From Armatimonadota bacterium (GTDB taxonomy: Bacteria; Armatimonadota; SYMT01), in the NCBI GenBank assembly GCA_041690135.1, contig JAWLHY010000007.1, forward strand, positions 288,001-352,000: 64,000 nucleotides of DNA. Reading direction: 5' to 3'. The position numbers were made by a program, and so were the translations under genes. The notes below the pieces were generated by a model. The model did not search any database. It saw only the letters and a program-made list of their open reading frames with translations, and was not told the origin of the DNA. Shown piece after piece: positions 2,889 through 17,554 of this stretch. Each line of letters opens with the position of its first letter. The first letter of the stretch is position 1.

Positions 2889-5800
2889 TCACCGTTTCCA
2901 GACGGTCGCGTCCATATTCAAGATCGCCTGCGCGACGACGGTCGCCGCCGCAACCTCGGCGGGAGAAAGCGTGGTGTCCGGCTTGCGGTCGCCGATCTGC
3001 AGCAGCTGCGCCGCTTCTGGCGCTTGCCGGCGGAAATGCTCCAATTGCAGCGCATAGAGGGTGATGAGGAGCTTCTCCTCACCTGGCAGTGGGTCCCGCC
3101 CCGCGAGGCGGCGGAAGGCAAACCGGACCCGCTCCGCGGGGGTCGCCCCACCTTCCTTCAACATCCTCTCTCCCAGCACGCGCGCGGCCTCGACGAACTG
3201 CGGGTCGTTCAGGAGCACCAGCGCCTGAAGCGGCGTGCTGGTGGTCTGACGGCGCGCCACGCACACTTCCCGGCTCACGGCGTCGAAGGCCAGCATGTTC
3301 GGCATCGGGGCCGTACGTTTCAAGACGGAATAGAGGCTGCGGCGGTAAAGATCGGTGCCCACGCTCTGGCGGTACGCCGGGCTCATCACGTTGGCCTCGC
3401 GCCAAAGGTCTCCCGGCTGGTAGGGGCTCACCGGCGGCCCGCCGATCCTTCCGTCCAGCAGTCCGGACGCCGCCAGCGCGAGGTCGCGGATCTGCTCCGC
3501 ACTCAGCCGATGGCTCGGCCCGCGCGCCAGCAGCAGGTTCTCCGGGTCCTTCTGTTGCAGCTCCGGCCGCAGCGCCGAGGCCTGCCGGTAGGTGGCCGAG
3601 AGCACTATCAGCCGAAGGAGCGCCTTGACGTCCCAGCCAAGGCCTCCGGACGAATTTGCAATTGTCAATTTCAAATTGTCAATTGTCAATTGTCCAGGTC
3701 CGGCCCCCTGCCCCTGGCCCCCCTGCGTACTGGTGGCCACTGCCGGTGCGGAGAACCGAGAAGCCAGGTAATCCAGCAACTCCGGATGGGTCGGCAGCTT
3801 GCCCTGGAGCCCGAAGTTGTCGGAAGTTTCCACCAGCCCCTGGCCGAAGAAGAGGGACCAGAAGCGGTTGACGGCGACCCTAGTGGTGAGCGGATGACCG
3901 GGTCGCGTCAGCCACTCCGCCAGGCCGAGGCGGTCCCGGCGGAGCCCCTGGGGGAACGGCATCACGGCCGACGGCGTGCCCCGAGAAACGCGGTTGGCGT
4001 CCGTCTTGGGCGCGTCGTACTGGCCCCGCTCCAGCACGTAGGCGGGCCGCGGCTGCGGCATCTCATCCATTACGGCGACTTCGAACTGGGCGTCCTCGGC
4101 CTGCACCACGGCCTGCCGGGCGCCAGCCACGGCCGCGGCGGCCTGGCGTGCTTCCGGATCGATGGCGGAGAGGTAGAACTCTCGCAGCGCGGCCTCATGC
4201 CCGGCGGGGTTCTTGAGCGCGTCGAGGAGGGTGCGACCGTCGAAGAGTTGCGTCAACTCGAGACCGGAAAGGCTCCGGTTGAAGATCCGGAGGTCGTCGA
4301 TCCGGCCCCCTTTGAAGCCCTTGTCCCGGAACCGCTGCCCGAAGACCAGCGTGTGTTCTCCGGTGCCCTTCACCAGCCGATCCCGGAGGGTCTCCAGCTC
4401 GGCCGGCTTCCCGTTCACGTAGATCTTGAGGCCGGCGGCCCGGCTCGATCCATCGTAACTGACGGAGACGTGCGTCCAGGCGTCTTTCGCGATCGGGGTG
4501 CGAGTCCGGACGCCGATCGCGTTGCCCGGCCAGTGGCGGAACATGCGCGCCGAAAGCTGTCCTTTCTCGAGGATCAGGTCATATCCGTGGGGCCCGGCAT
4601 CGGTGCCGCTGCAGGCCTGGAACACCACGGCTGGCTCGGCGGCGATGCGGGGGTCGTACATCCAGAAGGAGATCGTGAACGGGGTATGCCGGGAGAAGCG
4701 GCCGAGGTTGGGAAAGTTGACGTTGTTCTCCCCGTCGAGCTGGATCGCCTTGCCGTTCTTCCCCGGCACCAGCGGGACTTCATCCAGCCGCGCGCCGTGG
4801 TGAGTCGCGCCCGGCGACTCGTTCCTCAGAGTCGCTCCCTCGAAGCTCTCGAAGCTGAACTTCCCGGTGCGGTCGGGCAGGGGATCGACCTTCGGTCGTG
4901 AAGTCAGCCAGTTCCGGAAGCGCTCTTCGGCGCCCGTGCGGGCGGCAGCGAGTGTTTGCTCCGCCTGCTGCAGGGCCTGCCGCGCCTGGGCAAGCTGCTG
5001 CTCCTGCGGAGGGGTGGGGAGGAGCAGGGAGGGGGAGGGCACGATGTCCGCGCGGTCGTAGAGGCCGTGCTCGTCGATGCTGTTGAAGAAGGCGGATAGG
5101 GAGTAGTAATCCCGGTGTGAAATCGGGTCAAACTTGTGGTCGTGACAGCGCGCGCACTCCAGCGTCAGGCCCAGGAATGCGGTTCCGAAGGTGTTGACTC
5201 GATCCGCTACCGCCTCGAGGCGCCATTCCTCCGGCACGCTCCCACCTTCGTTTGTCATCCGATGGATCCGGTTGAAGGCGGTGGCCAGCCGCTGTTCCCG
5301 CGTGGCGTTGGGCAGGAGGTCCCCCGCCACCTGGTAGGTGATAAACCGGTCGTACGGGAGATTGTTGTTGAAGGCCTGAACGACCCAGTCCCGGTACGGC
5401 CAGGTGGGAGAGAGCTGGTCGCTCTGGTAACCGTAGCTGTCCGCGTAACGCGCGACATCCAGCCACGGCACGGCCATCTGTTCCCCAAACCGGGGGCTGG
5501 TGAGCAGGCGGTCTACTACCTTCTCATAGGCCTGGGGCGCCCGGTCGGTGAGGAACGCCTCCAACTCCGCCGGAGTGGGCGGGAGACCGGTTAGGTCGAG
5601 GGTGACCCGGCGCAGCCAGTCGCTCCGGCTCGCTTCGGGGGAGGGCTTTAGCCCCGCTTTCTCCAGCCGGGCCAGGACGAAGCGGTCGATCTCGTTGCGG
5701 CACCAGCCGGCATTTTTCACTGCTGGCACGGGCACCCGGGCCGGCAGCGGGACGAAAGACCAGTGCGCCTCGTACTTCGCGCCCTGCGCCACCCACCGGC

Positions 5801-13186: not shown

Positions 13187-14572
13187 ATGACAGGCGGCAA
13201 TCTCCCTGGCAGGCGGGGATCCACGTTAGGGTTTCTCCTCTGCGTTTGGCTGGCAGCGGTGGCGTACCTTGCCAGCAGGACGCCCGTCTCCGCCGCGCCC
13301 GCGCGACCGAATGTCCTCTTTCTCTTTACCGATGATCAGCGCGCGGATACGATCGGCGCGCTGGGCAACCCGGTCATTCGCACTCCCAACCTCGACTCCC
13401 TCGTGCGTTCCGGATTCACGTTCACCAACGCCTACTGCCTGGGTGCCAACGTGGGTGCGGTGTGCACCCCCAGCCGGAACATGCTTCTCAGCGGGAAAAC
13501 CTACTTCCGCTGGACCGGTAACCTGGCTCCCGCGGAGGGTCTCAACTTCCCCGTCTCCATGCAAAAGGCCGGGTACGAGACCTATCACCATGGCAAGCGG
13601 GGGAACACGGCCCTGCGCATCCAGGCGAAGTTCGAGCACAACTACTACCTGCGGAACGACATGGCGGAGCGGAACAGCGGTGAGCCGGGAAAGGAGATCG
13701 TGGACGCGGCGATCCGGTTCCTGGGCGAACGGAAGGGGGAACGGCCCTTCTTCATGTACCTGGCGTTCGGCAACCCGCATGATCCACGGGTAGCGACGCG
13801 GAAGTACCTGGACCTCTACGATCCCGCGAAGATCCCCCTGCCCCGTAACTACCGCCCACTCCATCCCTTCAACAATGGCGAAATGACCGTGCGCGATGAA
13901 AAGCTGGCACCCTGGCCGCGCACGGAAGCGGAGGTCCGGCGCCATCTCCACGAGTACTACGCCGTGACGACGGCGCTCGATGGGCATATCGGACGGCTTC
14001 TACAAACTCTGAAGGACCGCGGCCAGTACGACAACACGCTGATCGTCTTTTCCTCCGATCACGGTTTGGCTATCGGCAGTCACGGCCTGATGGGCAAGCA
14101 GAACCTCTACGAGCACAGCATGAAGGCGCCACTCGTTTTCAGCGGTCCCGGAATCCGGCGGGGGAAATCGGCAGCGCTGGCCTATCTGCTGGACATCTAT
14201 CCGACCGTATCGGAGTTGGTGGGAGCCGAGACGCCGGCGGACCTCGATGGGAAGAGCCTGAAGCCCGCCCTGGACAACCCGCGCGAACAGGTGCGAGGCG
14301 CCGTTTTCCTCGCCTATCGGGACATCCAGCGCGCCGTCCGCGACGACCGGTGGAAACTCATCCGCTACCCCCAGGTGAACGTGACGCAGCTCTTCGACCT
14401 CCGCAACGACCCGGACGAGCTCCGCGACCTCTCCGACGACCCCCAGCACCGCCGGCACCGGGAGCGGCTGCTGCGGCGGCTTTCCATGGAGCAGCGCCGC
14501 TATGGGGACACAGCTCTTCTCACCGTCCCCAACCCCCAACCCCAGACCTTCGTCCCACCCCCAACTGACTAA
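13187..14572 (+). CDS. Sulfatase (formylglycine-dependent, choline-sulfatase-like)
   Basis: [33 protein letters not shown]; N-terminal signal. Confidence 0.92.
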
Positions 14573-14582
14573 ACAGGGGTTG

Positions 14583-14709
14583 GGAAGGAACAGGATGGAC
14601 AGGATGAGCAGGATGGACAAAGTGCGAAAATGGCTGTTGGGTTAGACGCACGCGAGGACCAACCGCCAAATCCACTCATCCTACCGATCCTGCCCATCCT
14701 GTTCCTTCC
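14583..14709. repeat. Inverted pair of 9-nt tandem repeats (CAGGATGGA) between convergent genes; possible bidirectional terminator
   Basis: ggaaggaacaggatgg (14583-14598) is the exact reverse complement of ccatcctgttccttcc (14694-14709); three units per arm. Confidence 0.85.
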
Positions 14710-14733
14710 GATCGCTCTCATCCCAATTTGTGA

Positions 14734-15462
14734 CTAAGCCTTGCGTCCCGGAGCCAGCGCGGCGGCCGCCGTGGTCATGACCTCCGTCGGCACGGCGATC
14801 ACCACGGTGTTGCCCAGCCCGTCGCCGACCTGCGTCAGCGCCTCGATCTCCCGCAGGCGGACCAGCATCGGGTTCTCCTGCAGCATCCGCGCCGTGTTGG
14901 CCCGCGCCCGGGTGGCCGCCACTTCCTCCCGCGCCGCGACCAGGGCCGCCCGCCCCGTCCGCTGCGCTTCCAGCTCCTGCGACAGCATCTTCTTCACCTC
15001 GCCCGGCAGGATGATGTCCTTCACCCCCACGCGCAGCAACTCGAGGCCCAGGTCCGTGGCGGCCGCGCGACCCGGTTCCAGCAGTTCCGTGGAAAGCGCC
15101 CCGCGCCCCGCAAGGAGTTCATCCAGCGACCGCGTCTGCACCGCCTCCCGCAGGGAGAGCTGGATCGCCGTGTACAACGAGATTTGGTAGTTTTCCACCG
15201 TGTGGAGCGCGGTAACGGCATCGACCACGCGGTACTCGGCCGCCACGTTCAGCCGCACGGAGATGCCGTCCGCGGTCAGCATTTCCTGGCCGTTGATCGT
15301 CATCTCCGTCCGCCGGGTGTCGACGCGGACGATCTCCTGCTTCAACCACGGCAGGTGCAGCAGGCGGTGGCGCCCCGGCTCCACGGCGCCCAGGAACTGT
15401 CCGTTGCTATAGAGAAGGCCCACTTCCGTCTCGCGTACCGTTTCGTGATCGATCCACAACAT
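14734..15462 (-). CDS. SPFH/Band-7 (slipin/stomatin-like) protein
   Basis: VDTRR...QEMLTADGISVRLN, GVKDIILPGE, AREEVAATRARANTAR, LVRLREIEAL; AGGAGG RBS before the ATG at 15462. Confidence 0.9.
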   Translation of the reverse strand: MLWIDHETVRETEVGLLYSNGQFLGAVEPGRHRLLHLPWLKQEIVRVDTRRTEMTINGQEMLTADGISVRLNVAAEYRVVDAVTALHTVENYQISLYTAIQLSLREAVQTRSLDELLAGRGALSTELLEPGRAAATDLGLELLRVGVKDIILPGEVKKMLSQELEAQRTGRAALVAAREEVAATRARANTARMLQENPMLVRLREIEALTQVGDGLGNTVVIAVPTEVMTTAAAALAPGRKA

Positions 15463-15484
15463 CCTCGACCTCCTACAAACGTTC

Positions 15485-15648
15485 AAAAAAGCACAGCCGG
15501 CCGGCCGCCGGTCGCCACCGGCGGGGGCGCGGTTGACGCCGGAAGCGTTCCGGCCCGTAGGCCGGTTCGGATCCGGCGGGTATCCCCGCACCCGCAAAGC
15601 CGGTTTCGACACCGTCACCAGGACGGCTCACGGCCGGCCGCACTGCGC
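15485..15648 (-). ncRNA. Candidate structured RNA closed by a ~17-bp 5'/3' stem and ending in U6
   Basis: 5' GCGCAGU-G-CGGCCGGCCG pairs with 3' CGGCCGGCCG-GCUGUGC, followed by UUUUUU. Internal hairpins CCGUC/GACGG, GCGGGU/ACCCGC, CCGGC/GCCGG, CCGCCGG/CCGGCGG. High GC inflates chance pairing. Confidence 0.5.
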
Positions 15649-15702
15649 TCGCACAGGATTCGAACCTGCATTTGCCCAGATACCGGTTAACAGCCGGTTG
15701 GC
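15645..15702 (-). pseudogene. Partial tRNA-Asn(GUU)-like element (anticodon arm and T arm, no recognisable D arm)
   Basis: ACCGG-CTGTTAA-CCGGT anticodon arm (15682-15698) and GCAGG-TTCGAAT-CCTGT T arm (15653-15669); 5' part non-canonical. Confidence 0.7.
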
Positions 15703-15769
15703 ATGTGCCGGCCCGATGCGCGGAACGTCCTTCGGCACAGCCCCGGACGCCGCTTGGGTGCGCGGCACA

Positions 15770-15841
15770 TCGGCGCGCCTGGAGTCGAACCAGGATCAGT
15801 CCCTTATAAGGGGACCGCTCTAACCCTTGAGCTACGCGCCG
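15770..15841 (-). tRNA. tRNA-Ile, anticodon UAU (no encoded CCA)
   Basis: Full cloverleaf: CGGCGCG TA GCTC AAGGGTTA GAGC G GTCCC CT-TAT-AA GGGAC TGAT CCTGG TTCGACT CCAGG CGCGCCG A. Confidence 0.93.
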
Positions 15842-15850
15842 AAGACATGG

Positions 15851-15897
15851 AAAACAAAACACCCCCGCCGGATCCTGGGGGGACCGGCGGGGGTGTT
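15851..15897 (-). terminator. Intrinsic terminator/attenuator hairpin immediately upstream of tRNA-Ile(UAU)
   Basis: CACCCCCGCCGG...CCGGCGGGGGTG followed by TTTTGTTTT on the minus strand. Confidence 0.85.
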
Positions 15898-15927
15898 CGA
15901 AAACTTCCCGGAAAGCTGCTCGTACGC

Positions 15928-16083
15928 CTAAAGCGTGAAGAGCCTCCTCCTACCGGTCCGGATGGCCGCAGGGAATGCTATGCGGCCGCTGTTCCCAAAG
16001 AGGTACGGCCACGCATTCGCCCCCAGATTTCTCGGGGCGCGTATCGCGGCTTCTATTCGCTTGGAGTAGCGGTTCATCAACAT
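15928..16083 (-). CDS. Putative attenuator leader peptide, 51 aa (MLMNRYSKRIEAAIRAPRNLGANAWPYLFGNSGRIAFPAAIRTGRRRLFTL)
   Basis: Lies between promoter and terminator; 3 ATA, CGA, AGA, AGG x3 and 4 Asn codons; weak RBS; below the ORF-track length cutoff. Confidence 0.6.
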   Translation of the reverse strand: MLMNRYSKRIEAAIRAPRNLGANAWPYLFGNSGRIAFPAAIRTGRRRLFTL

Positions 16084-16133
16084 CGTCGTTTGCGGTTGCT
16101 CGGTTCCGTGCTGCCTAACCGGCAGTGATGGGA

Positions 16134-16162
16134 ATGGTAGCCGACAGTCCGGGCGGTGTCAA
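16134..16162 (-). promoter_or_regulatory. sigma70-type promoter for the leader/tRNA/SPFH unit
   Basis: TTGACA-17 nt-TACCAT; a second TTGACACC lies 20 bp further upstream (16175-16182). Confidence 0.75.
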
Positions 16163-16201
16163 CCCCTTTGGCTAGGTGTCAATGGATCTGCCAACGAAGG
16201 T

Positions 16202-16396
16202 GGCACCGGTAGGGTACGTCTCGTACACCCGGCGAAGTTAGGGCCGCAGCGTTCCGTTGTCATGGAGCTGATCCCGTCCTGACCACTCTTAGCTGTCCCG
16301 TGGCCGGAAGGGTCCGGCTTGGCCCCACGAGATCAACATCGGCGCCTGCGGAATGGAACGGCCCTAGCTGCGCCGGGTGTACGTCACATTCCCTAC
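16202..16396. repeat. Inverted doublet of REP-like elements (REPIN-like)
   Basis: 16202-16245 on + and gtagggaatgtgacgtacacccggcgcagctagggcc on - (16360-16396). Confidence 0.8.
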
Positions 16397-16581
16397 TATC
16401 AAGAGTGCACGTGACGCTCCGCGAGCCCGAACCACCTCACCAGAGGTGGATACAAAGCCGTAACGGACCCCCTGATGCACCACATAGCCGACAAATGCGG
16501 GTGACCACAGGGCAGTTGCCATGTGTAGCCGGGGCACCCACTCGTGGGTCGTCACTCGCCCAGCACAGCCCTTGGCAATCC

Positions 16582-17346
16582 CTAATCGGCCGCCCGGTCG
16601 CGGAGTGCCCGCCGCTCCCAGTGCGCCAGGACTACCCGGCCCCCTTCCACTTCCAGGCGGGCGATACCGGCGAAGAAGGCAAAGGCGTAGACCTGCAGGA
16701 TCGGCACGCCGTTCACCACGGCCGGCTCCAGCAGGTCCGTGTGGCTGTGGCCGCCGATGATGAGGTCCAATTCCGGGCAGGCTTCCGCCAGGGCCTGGTC
16801 TTGCCGGAACCCGATGTGCGTGAGCCCCACCAGCACGTCCACCCGCGGGCGCAGGTCCGCTATCTGCTGCCGTGCCGCCTTCAAGGGGTCGTCGAACCAG
16901 TAGTCGCAGAACGGCTGGGACCACTGCTTGCGCGTGAACATGGGGACCGTAACGCCGAAGACACCCACCTGGACGTCTCCTATCGGCAGGACTACGTGGG
17001 GCACGGTCGGCAGGGGAGCTCCACCCTTGGCGGTGACGTTGGCGCAGAGCAACGGAAAGCGGGCACGATCGACCTTAAGCGGGAAGCACTCCCGCCGGGG
17101 ATGCGTTTCCCGATTGCCCAGGCACATCGCTCGGCAACCGAGATCGGACAGCGTCTCCAATGCCGGTTCGCCACCGATCCGAAAGCCCAGGTTGCCCGCC
17201 GAAACGGTATCACCGGCATCCAGGTAAAGCGCACCGGGATGCTCCGCCAACAGCGCGCGCAGCCGCTCGGCCGGGGGCGGTCCGGGCTCCTTCCACTGCG
17301 CTCCAAAGCGCCCGTGGCTATCGTTGGTATGGATCAGGGTGAGCAT
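16582..17346 (-). CDS. Metallophosphoesterase (5'-nucleotidase N-terminal domain)
   Basis: HTNDSH, DAGD, LGNRE, THIG, GGHSH motifs. Confidence 0.88.
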   Translation of the reverse strand: MLTLIHTNDSHGRFGAQWKEPGPPPAERLRALLAEHPGALYLDAGDTVSAGNLGFRIGGEPALETLSDLGCRAMCLGNRETHPRRECFPLKVDRARFPLLCANVTAKGGAPLPTVPHVVLPIGDVQVGVFGVTVPMFTRKQWSQPFCDYWFDDPLKAARQQIADLRPRVDVLVGLTHIGFRQDQALAEACPELDLIIGGHSHTDLLEPAVVNGVPILQVYAFAFFAGIARLEVEGGRVVLAHWERRALRDRAAD

Positions 17347-17352
17347 GGGAAT

Positions 17353-17554
17353 GGTGTTCAGGTGGGCAGGTGTTCGGGTATTCAGGTGTTCGGTCCCCCC
17401 TGTGGGGGTAAACGTTGGGCATCGGGCCACCCCGCGGGTGGTAAACGTTCAGGCATTGGGCAATCAGGCTTTGGGCCGCTCCAAATACCTTGTGAAAGCC
17501 TGACTGCCGGAAAGTTTGGGAGCTGAACACCCGAACACCGAACACCTGAACACC
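17353..17554. repeat. Inverted arrays of an 8-nt repeat (GGTGTTCR / YGAACACC) filling the kdsC-phosphoesterase spacer
   Basis: 5 units at 17353-17392 and 4 complementary units at 17524-17554. Confidence 0.88.

Follow-up and report, generated by a model that had tools for sequence, protein, structure and literature searches.

What governs the expression of a tRNA gene that begins only a few nucleotides behind an intrinsic terminator? This question is raised by a stretch on the minus strand of the window, the 64,000-nucleotide segment of an Armatimonadota bacterium analysed here, in which a first-pass annotation had listed a promoter, a 51-codon ORF with three ATA codons, a terminator, a tRNA, a structured RNA and an SPFH gene. 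All of these parts were found on the minus strand at, or no more than 1–2 nt away from, the positions it had given, and they follow one another in sequence on that single strand. The stretch is probably one self-contained cassette with a single promoter, gated by a ribosome-sensing (leader-ORF) transcription attenuator.

Parts of the cassette

The promoter-like site TTGACA-17-TACCAT (16134..16162, minus strand, as for all features below) matches the sigma-70 consensus at 10 of 12 positions and is the only sigma-70-like site on either strand of 13500–17500, where shuffled sequences contain 0.6 on average; a -35-like TTGAC/TTTAC was read by eye at the corresponding place in nine related leaders. 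The leader ORF (15928..16083), presumably translated, starts with ATG about 44 nt after the -10 element, comprises 51 codons plus the stop, and harbors in-frame ATA codons at 16056–54, 16044–42 and 15981–79, three AGG codons counted from the sequence (15952–15944), and CGA and AGA codons. Its stop lies 31 nt from the arm of the intrinsic terminator (15851..15896), a G+C-rich hairpin followed by a T-run with a folding energy of -33.5 kcal/mol, which was overlooked by a simple consensus terminator scan because its loop exceeds the limit of that scan; terminators of similar sequence occupy the equivalent place in related loci. The T-run is followed after 8–9 nt by tRNA-Ile(UAU), placed at 15769..15842 by ARAGORN and at 15841..15770 by the Rfam tRNA model (67.1 bits), which displays a standard cloverleaf with a C1-G72 acceptor end and no encoded CCA.

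Next in order is a folded RNA of about 280 nt, delineated by covariation and consisting of a long irregular hairpin with invariant internal loops (domain 1, 15705..15768) and of nested helices that surround conserved internal loops, with a long-range G+C helix closing the domain (domain 2, 15491..15648). In domain 1, 87% of the cells of a 15-sequence alignment are paired, compared with 36–53% when the partners are slid, 26 cells are double changes, and none of 500 shuffles reaches the observed value; the 29 pairs of domain 2 are 80.7% paired compared with 41–46% when slid, with 17 pairs changed on both sides and again 0 of 500 shuffles. The domain 1 model, R1, has a single match in the genome, at the window locus (76.6 bits), and the fold of the whole 306-nt sequence, taken singly, gives z = -4.0. 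Rfam 15, which includes tRNA-like Y RNAs and tmRNA, returned only tRNA matches, in the window at E<=1 and in 13 related loci at gathering scores. A 'tRNA-Asn(GUU)' was called by ARAGORN only at 15645..15722 (78 nt, anticodon at position 32) and is not matched by the Rfam tRNA model even at E<=1; the stretch contains an anticodon-arm-like hairpin at 15699–15682 (loop CTGTTAA) and a T-arm-like hairpin at 15669–15653, the latter seen by eye in 11 of 16 related RNAs, absent from four and variant in one, with a hairpin loop that varies. Since the 5' acceptor strand of this call overlaps the covarying hairpin of domain 1, the cloverleaf is partly an artefact. The stretch, earlier described as a tRNA-Asn-like fragment, is part of the larger conserved, covarying RNA, which has no Rfam match, and is not by itself a decayed tRNA gene; a second odd ARAGORN 'tRNA-Asn', on contig C16, was discarded as lying inside a coding region and unrelated. 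Any function of the RNA is putative.

Directly 3' of the domain 2 closing helix stands a six-T run (15485..15490), which was flagged as terminator-like and is not kept in the other loci read, followed by AGGAGG (15474–15469) and by the stomatin/slipin-type SPFH gene (14734..15462; 242 aa, Band_7 E=1.3e-27). The strands of its AlphaFold2 model (pLDDT 83.6) run from residue 3, a long helix spans residues 154–212, and the best fold matches are human stomatin (E=1.4e-18) and HflK/C (E about 1e-13); atlas clusters carry the name 'slipin family'. The designation as a membrane-stress protein is unproven for a product whose model is without an N-terminal membrane segment or helix; the orthologues of genomes G385 and G402 carry, by eye, a hydrophobic N-terminal extension. 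The scanned neighbouring ORFs contain no NfeD domain, defence-system profiles gave no match for the SPFH or GNAT proteins, and any function of the SPFH protein is a predicted one. DNA-level paralogues of the leader, tRNA, RNA or SPFH gene were absent from the genome, in which only flanking repeats recur.

The leader ORF and terminator in related loci

The arrangement at the head of the cassette was compared among related leaders. In each of the ten leaders in which a promoter-like site and a terminator were both recognised, a single ORF of 20 codons or more has its stop 23–36 nt before the terminator arm, the search window of 20–40 nt before the arm having been picked post hoc, after the data were seen. 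The chance of such a terminal ORF is 0.10–0.22 per leader (2000 dinucleotide shuffles), with a product of 2e-8, and the loci are related to each other, so that these counts overstate independence. The same layout heads six further modules: it precedes modules of 19, 11, 4 and 1 tRNA genes adjoining more distant SPFH genes, a single tRNA-Arg(GCG) in locus L026, and a 10-tRNA array on contig C4 of the window's own genome, where the stop lies 27 nt from the arm. The peptides themselves are dissimilar, the best pair among 16 having E = 0.005 in a 16-sequence database, which argues for a regulatory ORF and not for a small protein. The leader ORF is conserved in its position relative to the terminator, in the ten leaders and the six modules, and not in its peptide. 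A conserved unit of promoter, short ORF, terminator and tRNA is supported by these comparisons, and the kept position of the ORF end, together with the same layout before tRNA arrays, makes a ribosome-sensing attenuator well supported. The layout is not universal: a scan of 23 more distant SPFH loci (upstream sequence up to 1500 nt, 3000 nt for L008) detected a terminator plus terminal ORF in only six, and of the 16 close RNA/SPFH loci that are distinct, three (G214, G400 and L048) have no leader or terminator, another gene abutting the RNA, from which it follows that the attenuator is not obligatory. In three further loci (L057, L061 and L068) the contig ends within the locus.

A conventional small gene ending in a terminator of its own, with a downstream tRNA/SPFH unit that is reached by leaky read-through or from an unrecognised promoter and is not regulated by ribosome position, would account for part of this picture, as terminators normally follow stop codons at about 20–40 nt and the 50–110 nt that separate the terminator from the first tRNA in some loci could accommodate a promoter. 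By contrast, this gap is only 0–9 nt in the window and in G255, which leaves no room in the window for the separate constitutive tRNA promoter that the first-pass annotation had named as the case against its reading. We consider the small-gene explanation unlikely because the peptides of the 16 leaders are unconserved while the ORF position is conserved, and because no second promoter-like site occurs in 13500–17500; moreover, the promoter-ORF-terminator-tRNA unit travels together into different genomic contexts. The leaders are also 180–290 nt long and strongly folded, and the downstream RNA illustrates that the cassette makes use of elaborate RNA structure, features that would suit a non-coding regulatory leader (a riboswitch, or a protein- or tRNA-binding leader) controlling the terminator, with the ORF incidental. 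Such a leader is very improbable, given that the leaders show no sequence alignment except at the promoter and terminator, that the stop of an incidental ORF would not fall at a fixed distance in 10 of 10 leaders, and that the Rfam search at E<=1, tRNA apart, gives no match in the window stretch.

The geometry of the preferred ribosome-sensing switch was modelled in the same ten leaders. In six of them, the 5' arm of the terminator has its best partner within the last ~40 nt of the ORF. The antiterminator duplex energies are not above chance, 33 to 239 of 300 shuffled leaders doing as well, so an antiterminator is not shown by duplex energy, a result that also suits the small-gene explanation. 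A simulated ribosome occupying the last ~14 codons lowers the pairing clearly in three leaders, weakly in two (the window among them) and has no effect in five, and the no-ribosome state is likewise predicted to give read-through, so the direction of the switch is put forward here as a model-based proposal. Thermodynamic folding of full leaders always retains the terminator and cannot tell the state of the switch. Overall, the attenuator claimed earlier stands in its conserved arrangement, with the stop at 23–36 nt in 10 of 10 leaders; its mutually exclusive antiterminator is not shown above chance. The run of three AGG codons, present as the first-pass annotation had recorded and read by it as rare codons, may instead represent the G-rich strand that could pair with the C-rich terminator arm.

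On the proposed mechanism, RNA polymerase would start at TTGACA/TACCAT and transcribe the 51-codon leader ORF, which ribosomes would translate. A ribosome keeping pace would cover the last part of the ORF and mask the G-rich stretch from the C-rich 5' arm of the terminator, so that the terminator would form and transcription would end 8–9 nt before the tRNA. A lagging ribosome, most plausibly at the rare ATA located 17 codons before the stop, would leave the G-rich stretch free to hold the terminator arm, and the polymerase would read on into tRNA-Ile(UAU), the ~280-nt folded RNA with its tRNA-like parts and the SPFH gene, whose stomatin-like product would be soluble. With the additional tRNA, ATA would be read faster, which would close a negative feedback loop.

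ATA codons and the spare tRNA-Ile(UAU)

ATA is the candidate for the codon that is sensed. The genome uses it at 1.32 per 1000 codons, or 3.7% of Ile codons (3096 long ORFs), and the three in-frame ATA codons among the 51 of the window leader contrast with 0.067 expected from genome usage (Poisson P = 4.8e-5), an enrichment that had been anticipated; when the ORF is itself dinucleotide-shuffled 20,000 times, the corresponding P is 0.0155. Every ATA trinucleotide of this leader (3 of 3) is in frame, and the codons are single and scattered, with no tandem runs. Across the related loci, 12 of 16 leader ORFs contain at least one in-frame ATA, compared with 5.9 expected from shuffles (P = 9e-4), and in seven of the first ten an ATA lies 12–27 codons before the stop (P = 3e-4, for a range chosen post hoc). 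ATA accounts for 9 of 13 Ile codons in leaders linked to a UAU tRNA and 7 of 27 in the others (Fisher one-sided P = 0.012). The earlier claim that ATA is the sensed codon is favoured by this Ile-codon choice and by the 12 of 16 leaders; it is not favoured by the frames of ATA over the 16 leaders, 16 in frame versus 12 offset by +1 (not significant), or by its presence in 6 of 6 leaders with a UAU tRNA versus 6 of 10 without (P = 0.115). The case for ATA as the sensed codon is only suggestive.

The single locus with a GAU-anticodon tRNA of the same unusual acceptor stem has two ATC and zero ATA in its leader, and a tandem CGT CGT stands two codons before the stop ahead of tRNA-Arg(GCG). It can tentatively be proposed from these matches between leader codon and the tRNA behind the terminator (ATA with UAU, ATC with GAU, CGT CGT with tRNA-Arg(GCG)) that the cassettes are tRNA genes regulating their own supply by attenuation on the cognate codon, such that, when decoding capacity runs short, a stalled ribosome would cause the terminator to open and the tRNA supply to recover; the co-transcribed tRNA-like RNA, with the soluble SPFH cage protein, would make up an additional translational-stress device, and the whole would constitute a new class of decoding-capacity homeostat spread horizontally with tRNA arrays. 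It is equally conceivable, and held with no greater confidence, that the attenuator senses translation stress in general and without codon specificity, any slowing of ribosomes by antibiotics, starvation or ribosome damage causing read-through, with ATA incidental or merely slowing and tRNA-Ile(UAU) an interchangeable cargo. The occurrence of the same leader-terminator layout before arrays without a UAU tRNA, together with the ATA presence and frame counts given above, would fit such general sensing, as would the tRNA array and slipin gene of Anabaena, which respond to translation inhibitors generally (PMC8421152; PMC10272220). The differing Ile-codon choice, the coincidence in one case of a GAU anticodon with the loss of ATA, and the excess of ATA over what composition predicts all speak against it.

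The usual route of AUA decoding, through TilS and tRNA-Ile2(CAU), was recovered as the first-pass annotation had supposed: tilS is present in the window's genome (188.5 bits, above the cut-off), as it is in four of five other carrier genomes tested, and contig C9 carries a CAU tRNA whose anticodon arm we take, from its general features, to be tRNA-Ile2-like. With both present, tRNA-Ile(UAU), which alone of the assembly's 71 tRNA genes has a UAU anticodon, is a spare. Its charging with Ile is presumed, and it may be poor in the host, since the host IleRS keeps the Trp-type motif (Arg-Cys-Trp in the C-terminal zinc domain), the residue having been mapped to that of PMC3575796 by motif and not by a numbered alignment to that structure. 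In E. coli IleRS the Trp-type motif goes with poor charging of a UAU anticodon, and some bacteria are described as carrying a tRNA-Ile(UAU) gene alongside tilS (PMC3575796). The tRNA-Ile(UAU) of Mycoplasma mobile resembles the present one as a bacterial UAU anticodon able to read AUA without lysidine and differs from it in replacing TilS, whereas here the tilS system is retained; the wobble-contacting Trp of the M. mobile IleRS is replaced by Arg, whereas the host enzyme is not of this adapted type (PMC3575796). Unlike the M. mobile gene, the UAU tRNA here sits behind a terminator in a mobile-looking cassette. The further suggestion that it serves as a backup when TilS fails is not supported.

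Distribution and relation to known systems

Close SPFH orthologues (54–69% identity) were identified in nine other genomes of the phylum, eight of 401 sampled plus G402, and the motif is carried by 5 of 32 genomes in one family and by 2 of 24 in a second, the cassette not being found in the six other genomes of the window's own family. A metagenome scan with the motif yielded 29 loci, nine of them beside an SPFH gene and/or tRNA (L048, L052, L057, L058, L060, L061, L063, L064 and L068), of which three are near-duplicates of other loci, leaving six distinct ones. The remaining 20 adjoin no SPFH gene or tRNA; four of them lying inside long ORFs, which when scanned all have Pfam domains, were treated as chance matches. 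R1 does score some at up to 33 bits, but the core of that model is already set by the scan pattern. L059/L066 and L067, the latter adjoining a Fic gene, are motif matches with neither SPFH nor tRNA. Viral contigs gave 0 matches, and a scan of genome contigs with the SPFH protein detected one distant locus (39% identity, no tRNA). The SPFH gene is present in all loci and a GNAT gene in two; an RNA ligase and a methyltransferase follow the 10-tRNA array on C4, and GNAT genes, RNA ligase and slipin-type SPFH genes are physically linked to tRNAs across loci. Relatives with the same SPFH, RNA and leader carry 19, 11 and 4 tRNAs, while the window has one tRNA plus the tRNA-like RNA. Flanking genes differ between loci; a divergent upstream gene that is kept within one family lacks a Pfam domain, is unlike the window's neighbour and was not counted as part of the cassette, and a cyanobacterial origin was dismissed for want of a Photo_RC gene. 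The patchy distribution suggests horizontal spread.

The cassette shares with the trp, his, ilv and pheA leader-peptide attenuators a promoter, a short ORF and an intrinsic terminator, all preceding the genes under control, with the ORF ending near the terminator, and may share a rare or limiting codon upstream of a segment that could pair with the terminator arm. Those attenuators regulate biosynthetic enzymes, use tandem regulatory codons and sense amino-acid supply, whereas here a tRNA or tRNA array, a folded RNA and an SPFH protein would be regulated, the candidate sensing codons are single, no anti-antiterminator hairpin is demonstrable, and the signal would be the decoding capacity for one codon or general ribosome speed. 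Dar et al. 2016 are said to have found by Term-seq antibiotic-responsive leader-ORF attenuators in which stalling on a short ORF relieves a terminator and translation inhibitors induce the operon; these control resistance genes, whereas tRNA genes are concerned here, and we know of no attenuator of that type that controls tRNA genes. A literature search likewise found no tRNA operon under leader-peptide attenuation.

A functional parallel is the tRNA array of Anabaena PCC 7120 (PMC8421152; PMC10272220), which also consists of extra tRNA genes of patchy, transfer-like distribution, expected to stay silent as long as translation is unimpaired; linkage or co-regulation connects it with RNA-repair genes, GNAT acetyltransferases and a slipin-family SPFH protein (PMC10272220 Table 1). 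TrcR, the reported repressor of this trn array, also represses rtcB, two GNAT genes and alr0739-alr0740, annotated 'slipin family protein' (PMC10272220), and control is described as repressor binding to repeats at the -10 box (PMC8421152; PMC10272220); the words leader, terminator and attenuation are absent from the main text of PMC8421152. Control is by a repressor in Anabaena and appears to be by the leader ORF and terminator here, and the long array with a co-regulated slipin gene contrasts with the single tRNA and physically linked SPFH gene of the window. The cassette would be a minimal relative of horizontally spread tRNA-array operons that respond to translational stress in other bacteria. 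In the papers returned by the literature search, SPFH was not co-mentioned with tRNA-array terms.

The control of bacterial tRNA genes is usually assigned to their promoters, and a ribosome-sensing terminator ahead of such genes would represent a new control principle, which could explain how tRNA arrays that were acquired horizontally and are normally silent become coupled to translational stress in bacteria without the cyanobacterial repressor. If ATA is what is sensed, the cell would gauge its capacity for the rarest sense codon and answer with a modification-independent tRNA, which would bear on the evolutionary exchange of AUA decoding systems. The cassette further supplies a covarying RNA of ~280 nt that has tRNA-like parts and is undescribed, and the consistent genetic link between a stomatin-like SPFH protein and tRNAs offers a testable entry point to a family about whose roles in bacteria little is known. 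Through such cassettes, the cell may bring spare components of its translation machinery into use when its ribosomes falter.

Anatomy and distribution of the cassette

Every element listed by the first-pass annotation was confirmed on the minus strand and in the order described. These include a TTGACA-17-TACCAT promoter-like site (16162..16134), the sole sigma-70-like site found when both strands were scanned from 13500 to 17500; a leader ORF of 51 codons with an ATG start (16083..15928), in which codons 10, 14 and 35 are ATA and which also contains CGA, AGA and AGG AGG AGG; a terminator comprising a G+C-rich hairpin and a T-run (15896..15851, -33.5 kcal/mol); a tRNA with the anticodon UAU (15842..15769), called by ARAGORN and by the Rfam tRNA model at 67.1 bits; a folded RNA; and an SPFH/Band_7 gene of 242 aa (15462..14734), recognized by its Band_7 match, with AGGAGG ahead of its start. 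Repeats were observed on both sides. A repeat of roughly 120-200 bp that is dispersed in the genome lies at 16195-16400, immediately upstream of the promoter, and overlaps the start of a 408-aa ORF (16300-17526) without a Pfam domain; it matches more than 80 places, spread over 15 of the 25 contigs, some of them in both orientations, so that it resembles a palindromic element of the MITE or REP type. Just past the SPFH stop, a long inverted repeat (14578-14710, arms of about 35 nt) gave only spurious sub-threshold microRNA matches in Rfam; its arms recur on contigs C1, C3, C10 and C11, and it may serve as a terminator of repeat origin between the SPFH gene and the convergent sulfatase gene.

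The distribution of the cassette is patchy: one family has it in 5 of 32 genomes, a second family in 2 of 24, and it was not found in the six other genomes of the window's own family. The flanking genes differ from lineage to lineage. A DNA search of 41 related genomes detected the tRNA and downstream RNA in one same-order genome (G007). Of 401 genomes searched in the phylum, 45 have the SPFH protein at E<=1e-30; eight of these form a close group of their own at 54-66% identity, and family and order searches added G402, with 69% identity. Scanning metagenome contigs for the RNA motif yielded 29 loci, nine of which adjoin an SPFH gene and/or a tRNA (three being near-duplicates of already known loci), and the other 20 adjoin neither; four of these 20 had long ORFs scanned, all of which have Pfam domains, and were treated as chance. 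Viral contigs gave no matches to the motif. The UAU tRNA lies upstream in the window, G007, G255, G402, L052 (the same as L060), L061 and L068; G248 (the same as L063) shares the unusual C1-G72 acceptor stem and has GAU as its anticodon; in G358 (49 bits) the loop is of the UAU type and the anticodon stem is weak; and no tRNA was found in G385, G044, G214, G400, L058 and L048. A GNAT acetyltransferase gene follows the terminator in G385 and L061.

The leader ORF and terminator across loci and tRNA arrays

Leaders were compared at 10 distinct loci having both a promoter-like site and a terminator, several of which are kin. In each of the ten, a single ORF with 20 codons or more has its end 23-36 nt before the 5' arm of the terminator; the chance of such an ORF end is 0.10-0.22 per leader, with a product of 2e-8 (2000 dinucleotide shuffles each), for a search window of 20-40 nt before the 5' arm that was chosen after seeing the data. 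The comparison left out three near-duplicates; L057, L061 and L068, which are cut by contig ends; and G214, G400 and L048, where another gene abuts the RNA and neither leader nor terminator was seen, so that the attenuator is common, yet not obligatory. The leader sequences do not align beyond the promoter and terminator, and no real similarity was detected among 16 leader peptides (best E = 0.005). The array leaders L079 and L080, which belong to one family, share the short peptide motif Tyr-x-Pro-Thr-Phe-Asn, the sole hint of peptide conservation among the 16, which may serve in nascent-peptide arrest.

More divergent SPFH genes (36-46% identity) lie inside or behind tRNA arrays, the heads of which display a TTGACG-type promoter followed by a leader ORF of 67-85 codons, a strong terminator and the tRNAs, with the leader stops 22-38 nt before the terminator. 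This layout was found ahead of modules with 19, 11, 4 and 1 tRNA genes, as well as ahead of a lone tRNA-Arg(GCG) in L026, and an automatic scan of up to 1500 nt of upstream sequence (3000 nt for L008) detected a terminator with a terminal ORF at 6 of 23 distant SPFH loci. The window's own genome (G000) contains a second attenuator-like unit (contig C4:52411-54300, locus L091) with a TTGACT-17-TATAAT promoter-like site, a leader ORF of 53% G+C in a 65% G+C genome that bears one ATA five codons before its stop, and a -37 kcal/mol terminator 27 nt after that stop; a 77-aa ORF and then ten tRNA genes follow the terminator, and the array is followed by genes for a 549-aa protein that matches vWA weakly, for an RNA ligase (PF09414) and for a methyltransferase. 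The proposal that the leader acts as an attenuator is thus well supported by comparison, through the fixed ORF end in 10 of 10 leaders and the recurrence of the layout ahead of tRNA arrays.

In 6 of 10 leaders, the segment that pairs best with the terminator 5' arm falls within the final ~40 nt of the ORF. The pairing energies are matched by 33-239 of 300 shuffles. The transcript up to the terminator loop was also folded with a 30-nt ribosome mask shifted codon by codon; with the mask over the last ~14 codons, upstream pairing of the 5' arm falls clearly in G255, G248 and G402, weakly in the window and G007, and not at all in five leaders. These folding results fit a scheme in which a ribosome near the stop would permit termination and a ribosome held back would give read-through. 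The same folding predicts read-through without any ribosome too, so the direction of the switch is one that we infer.

ATA codons and AUA decoding in the host

The assembly (9.1 Mb in 25 contigs, with a G+C content of 64-66% in all contigs except one) uses ATA at 1.32 per 1000 codons, or 3.7% of Ile codons (3096 long ORFs). The window leader exceeds the expectation from genome coding usage, P(>=3 ATA) being 4.8e-5 by that measure and 0.0155 by shuffles. At least one in-frame ATA occurs in 12 of 16 leader ORFs versus 5.9 expected from shuffles (P = 9e-4), the loci behind these and the other ATA statistics being related to one another, and 7 of the first 10 leaders place an ATA at 12-27 codons ahead of the stop (P = 3e-4 for this post hoc window). 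ATA accounts for 9 of 13 Ile codons in the six leaders linked to a UAU tRNA versus 7 of 27 in the other ten (one-sided Fisher P = 0.012), and the leader of the GAU variant (G248) has two ATC and no ATA. On the other hand, ATA is present in 6 of 6 leaders with a UAU tRNA versus 6 of 10 without (P = 0.115), and the leader ORFs contain 16 in-frame ATA trinucleotides, with 12 more at offset +1 and 2 at +2, a split that carries no clear codon-level signal. Leader ATA codons are single, not tandem. ATA is a tentative candidate for the sensed codon, somewhat short of an even chance. Two other leaders fit a cognate-codon rule (n = 2): in L026, the leader preceding tRNA-Arg(GCG) shows tandem CGT CGT two codons short of its stop, and in L082, where tRNA-Arg(ACG) follows, the leader contains four CGA codons, of which one adjoins the stop.

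The tRNA had been proposed as a backup for failure of TilS, and this part was not supported. G000 encodes tilS (188.5 bits, above the cut-off), one of its five CAU tRNAs has what we take, from its anticodon arm, to be tRNA-Ile2-like features, and the UAU tRNA is unique of its kind among the 71 tRNA genes of the assembly, which makes it an extra and not a replacement. Four of five other carrier genomes tested also have tilS, the fifth genome being 88% complete. The host IleRS is of the bacterial type, and its C-terminal zinc domain retains the Arg-Cys-Trp motif. In the available text of one study, this Trp is linked to poor charging of the UAU anticodon by E. coli IleRS, and tilS and a UAU tRNA gene are stated to co-occur in some bacteria (PMC3575796). 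tRNA-Ile(GAU) and tRNA-Ala(UGC) were not found in the G000 assembly, most likely because the assembly lacks the rRNA operons; its contig C1 carries a selenocysteine tRNA.

The folded RNA, the SPFH protein and related systems

The 306 nt between the tRNA and the SPFH gene fold strongly (z = -4.0 versus 100 shuffles) and matched no Rfam family. Domain 1, a hairpin with invariant internal loops (15768..15705, minus strand), is supported by covariation among 15 sequences, with 87% of cells pairing versus 36-53% when partners were slid and 26 double-change cells, a value reached by 0 of 500 shuffles; four core pairs in these counts were fixed by the scan pattern and are hence uninformative. Its covariance model has a single match in the genome (76.6 bits) and weak matches (12-21 bits) upstream of SPFH on the same strand at 8 distant loci, array loci included, at offsets of about 220-300 nt by coordinate subtraction. 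Domain 2 (15648..15491, minus strand) consists of five nested helices, in which 80.7% of cells pair versus 41-46% when slid, with 0 of 500 shuffles reaching the observed value and changes on both sides in 17 of 29 pairs. Between the two domains lie an anticodon-arm-like hairpin with a variable loop (GUU in the window) and a T-arm-like hairpin, the latter seen by eye in 11 of 16 RNAs, absent in 4 and variant in 1. For its 'tRNA-Asn' at this place, ARAGORN takes a part of domain 1 as the acceptor strand; Rfam makes no such call.

At the place of the tRNA-like hairpins, the low-G+C locus L057 has a complete tRNA (~5331-5404, minus strand; 61.7 bits by Rfam, anticodon ACA by ARAGORN), followed by a hairpin with a GAU-anticodon-like loop. 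Full-length domain 1 matches of 24-25 bits with no adjoining SPFH gene were observed at L059/L066 and L067, with an unannotated ORF of 152 aa downstream and a Fic-domain gene nearby; they may be chance hits or a genuine role for the hairpin in other contexts. Six T in a row (15485-15490) lie directly 3' of the long-range closing helix of domain 2, just before the SPFH ribosome-binding site. This T-run was picked up as terminator-like by a simple scan, lacks conservation in the other loci read, and may provide a second checkpoint that acts on the SPFH gene alone.

The AlphaFold2 model of the SPFH protein (pLDDT 83.6) comprises an SPFH domain and a long helix, the nearest folds being human stomatin (E = 1.4e-18) and HflK/C, and its atlas clusters carry the name 'slipin family'. 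Unlike some orthologues, the window model has no N-terminal helix, and its designation as a membrane-stress protein was not borne out. Defence-system profiles gave no match to the protein.

According to the text available from the Anabaena literature, long tRNA arrays are horizontally spread, in Anabaena respond to translation inhibitors by induction, and are linked to RNA-processing genes (PMC8421152), and the Anabaena array is controlled by the repressor TrcR, the targets of which in Table 1 include rtcB, two GNAT genes and alr0739-alr0740, a 'slipin family protein' (PMC10272220). The words leader, terminator, attenuation and SPFH are absent from the array paper's main text as available (PMC8421152). 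In our literature search, which covered article text, no paper was found that describes a tRNA operon under leader-peptide attenuation, and none that brings SPFH and tRNA arrays together.

The putative rare-codon feedback loop is attractive and only suggestively supported. On comparative grounds, the best reading of the cassette is that of a leader-ORF attenuator gating what would be a small translational-stress module, made up of a spare tRNA together with a new structured RNA and an SPFH protein of the slipin type, and related to the tRNA-array operons.
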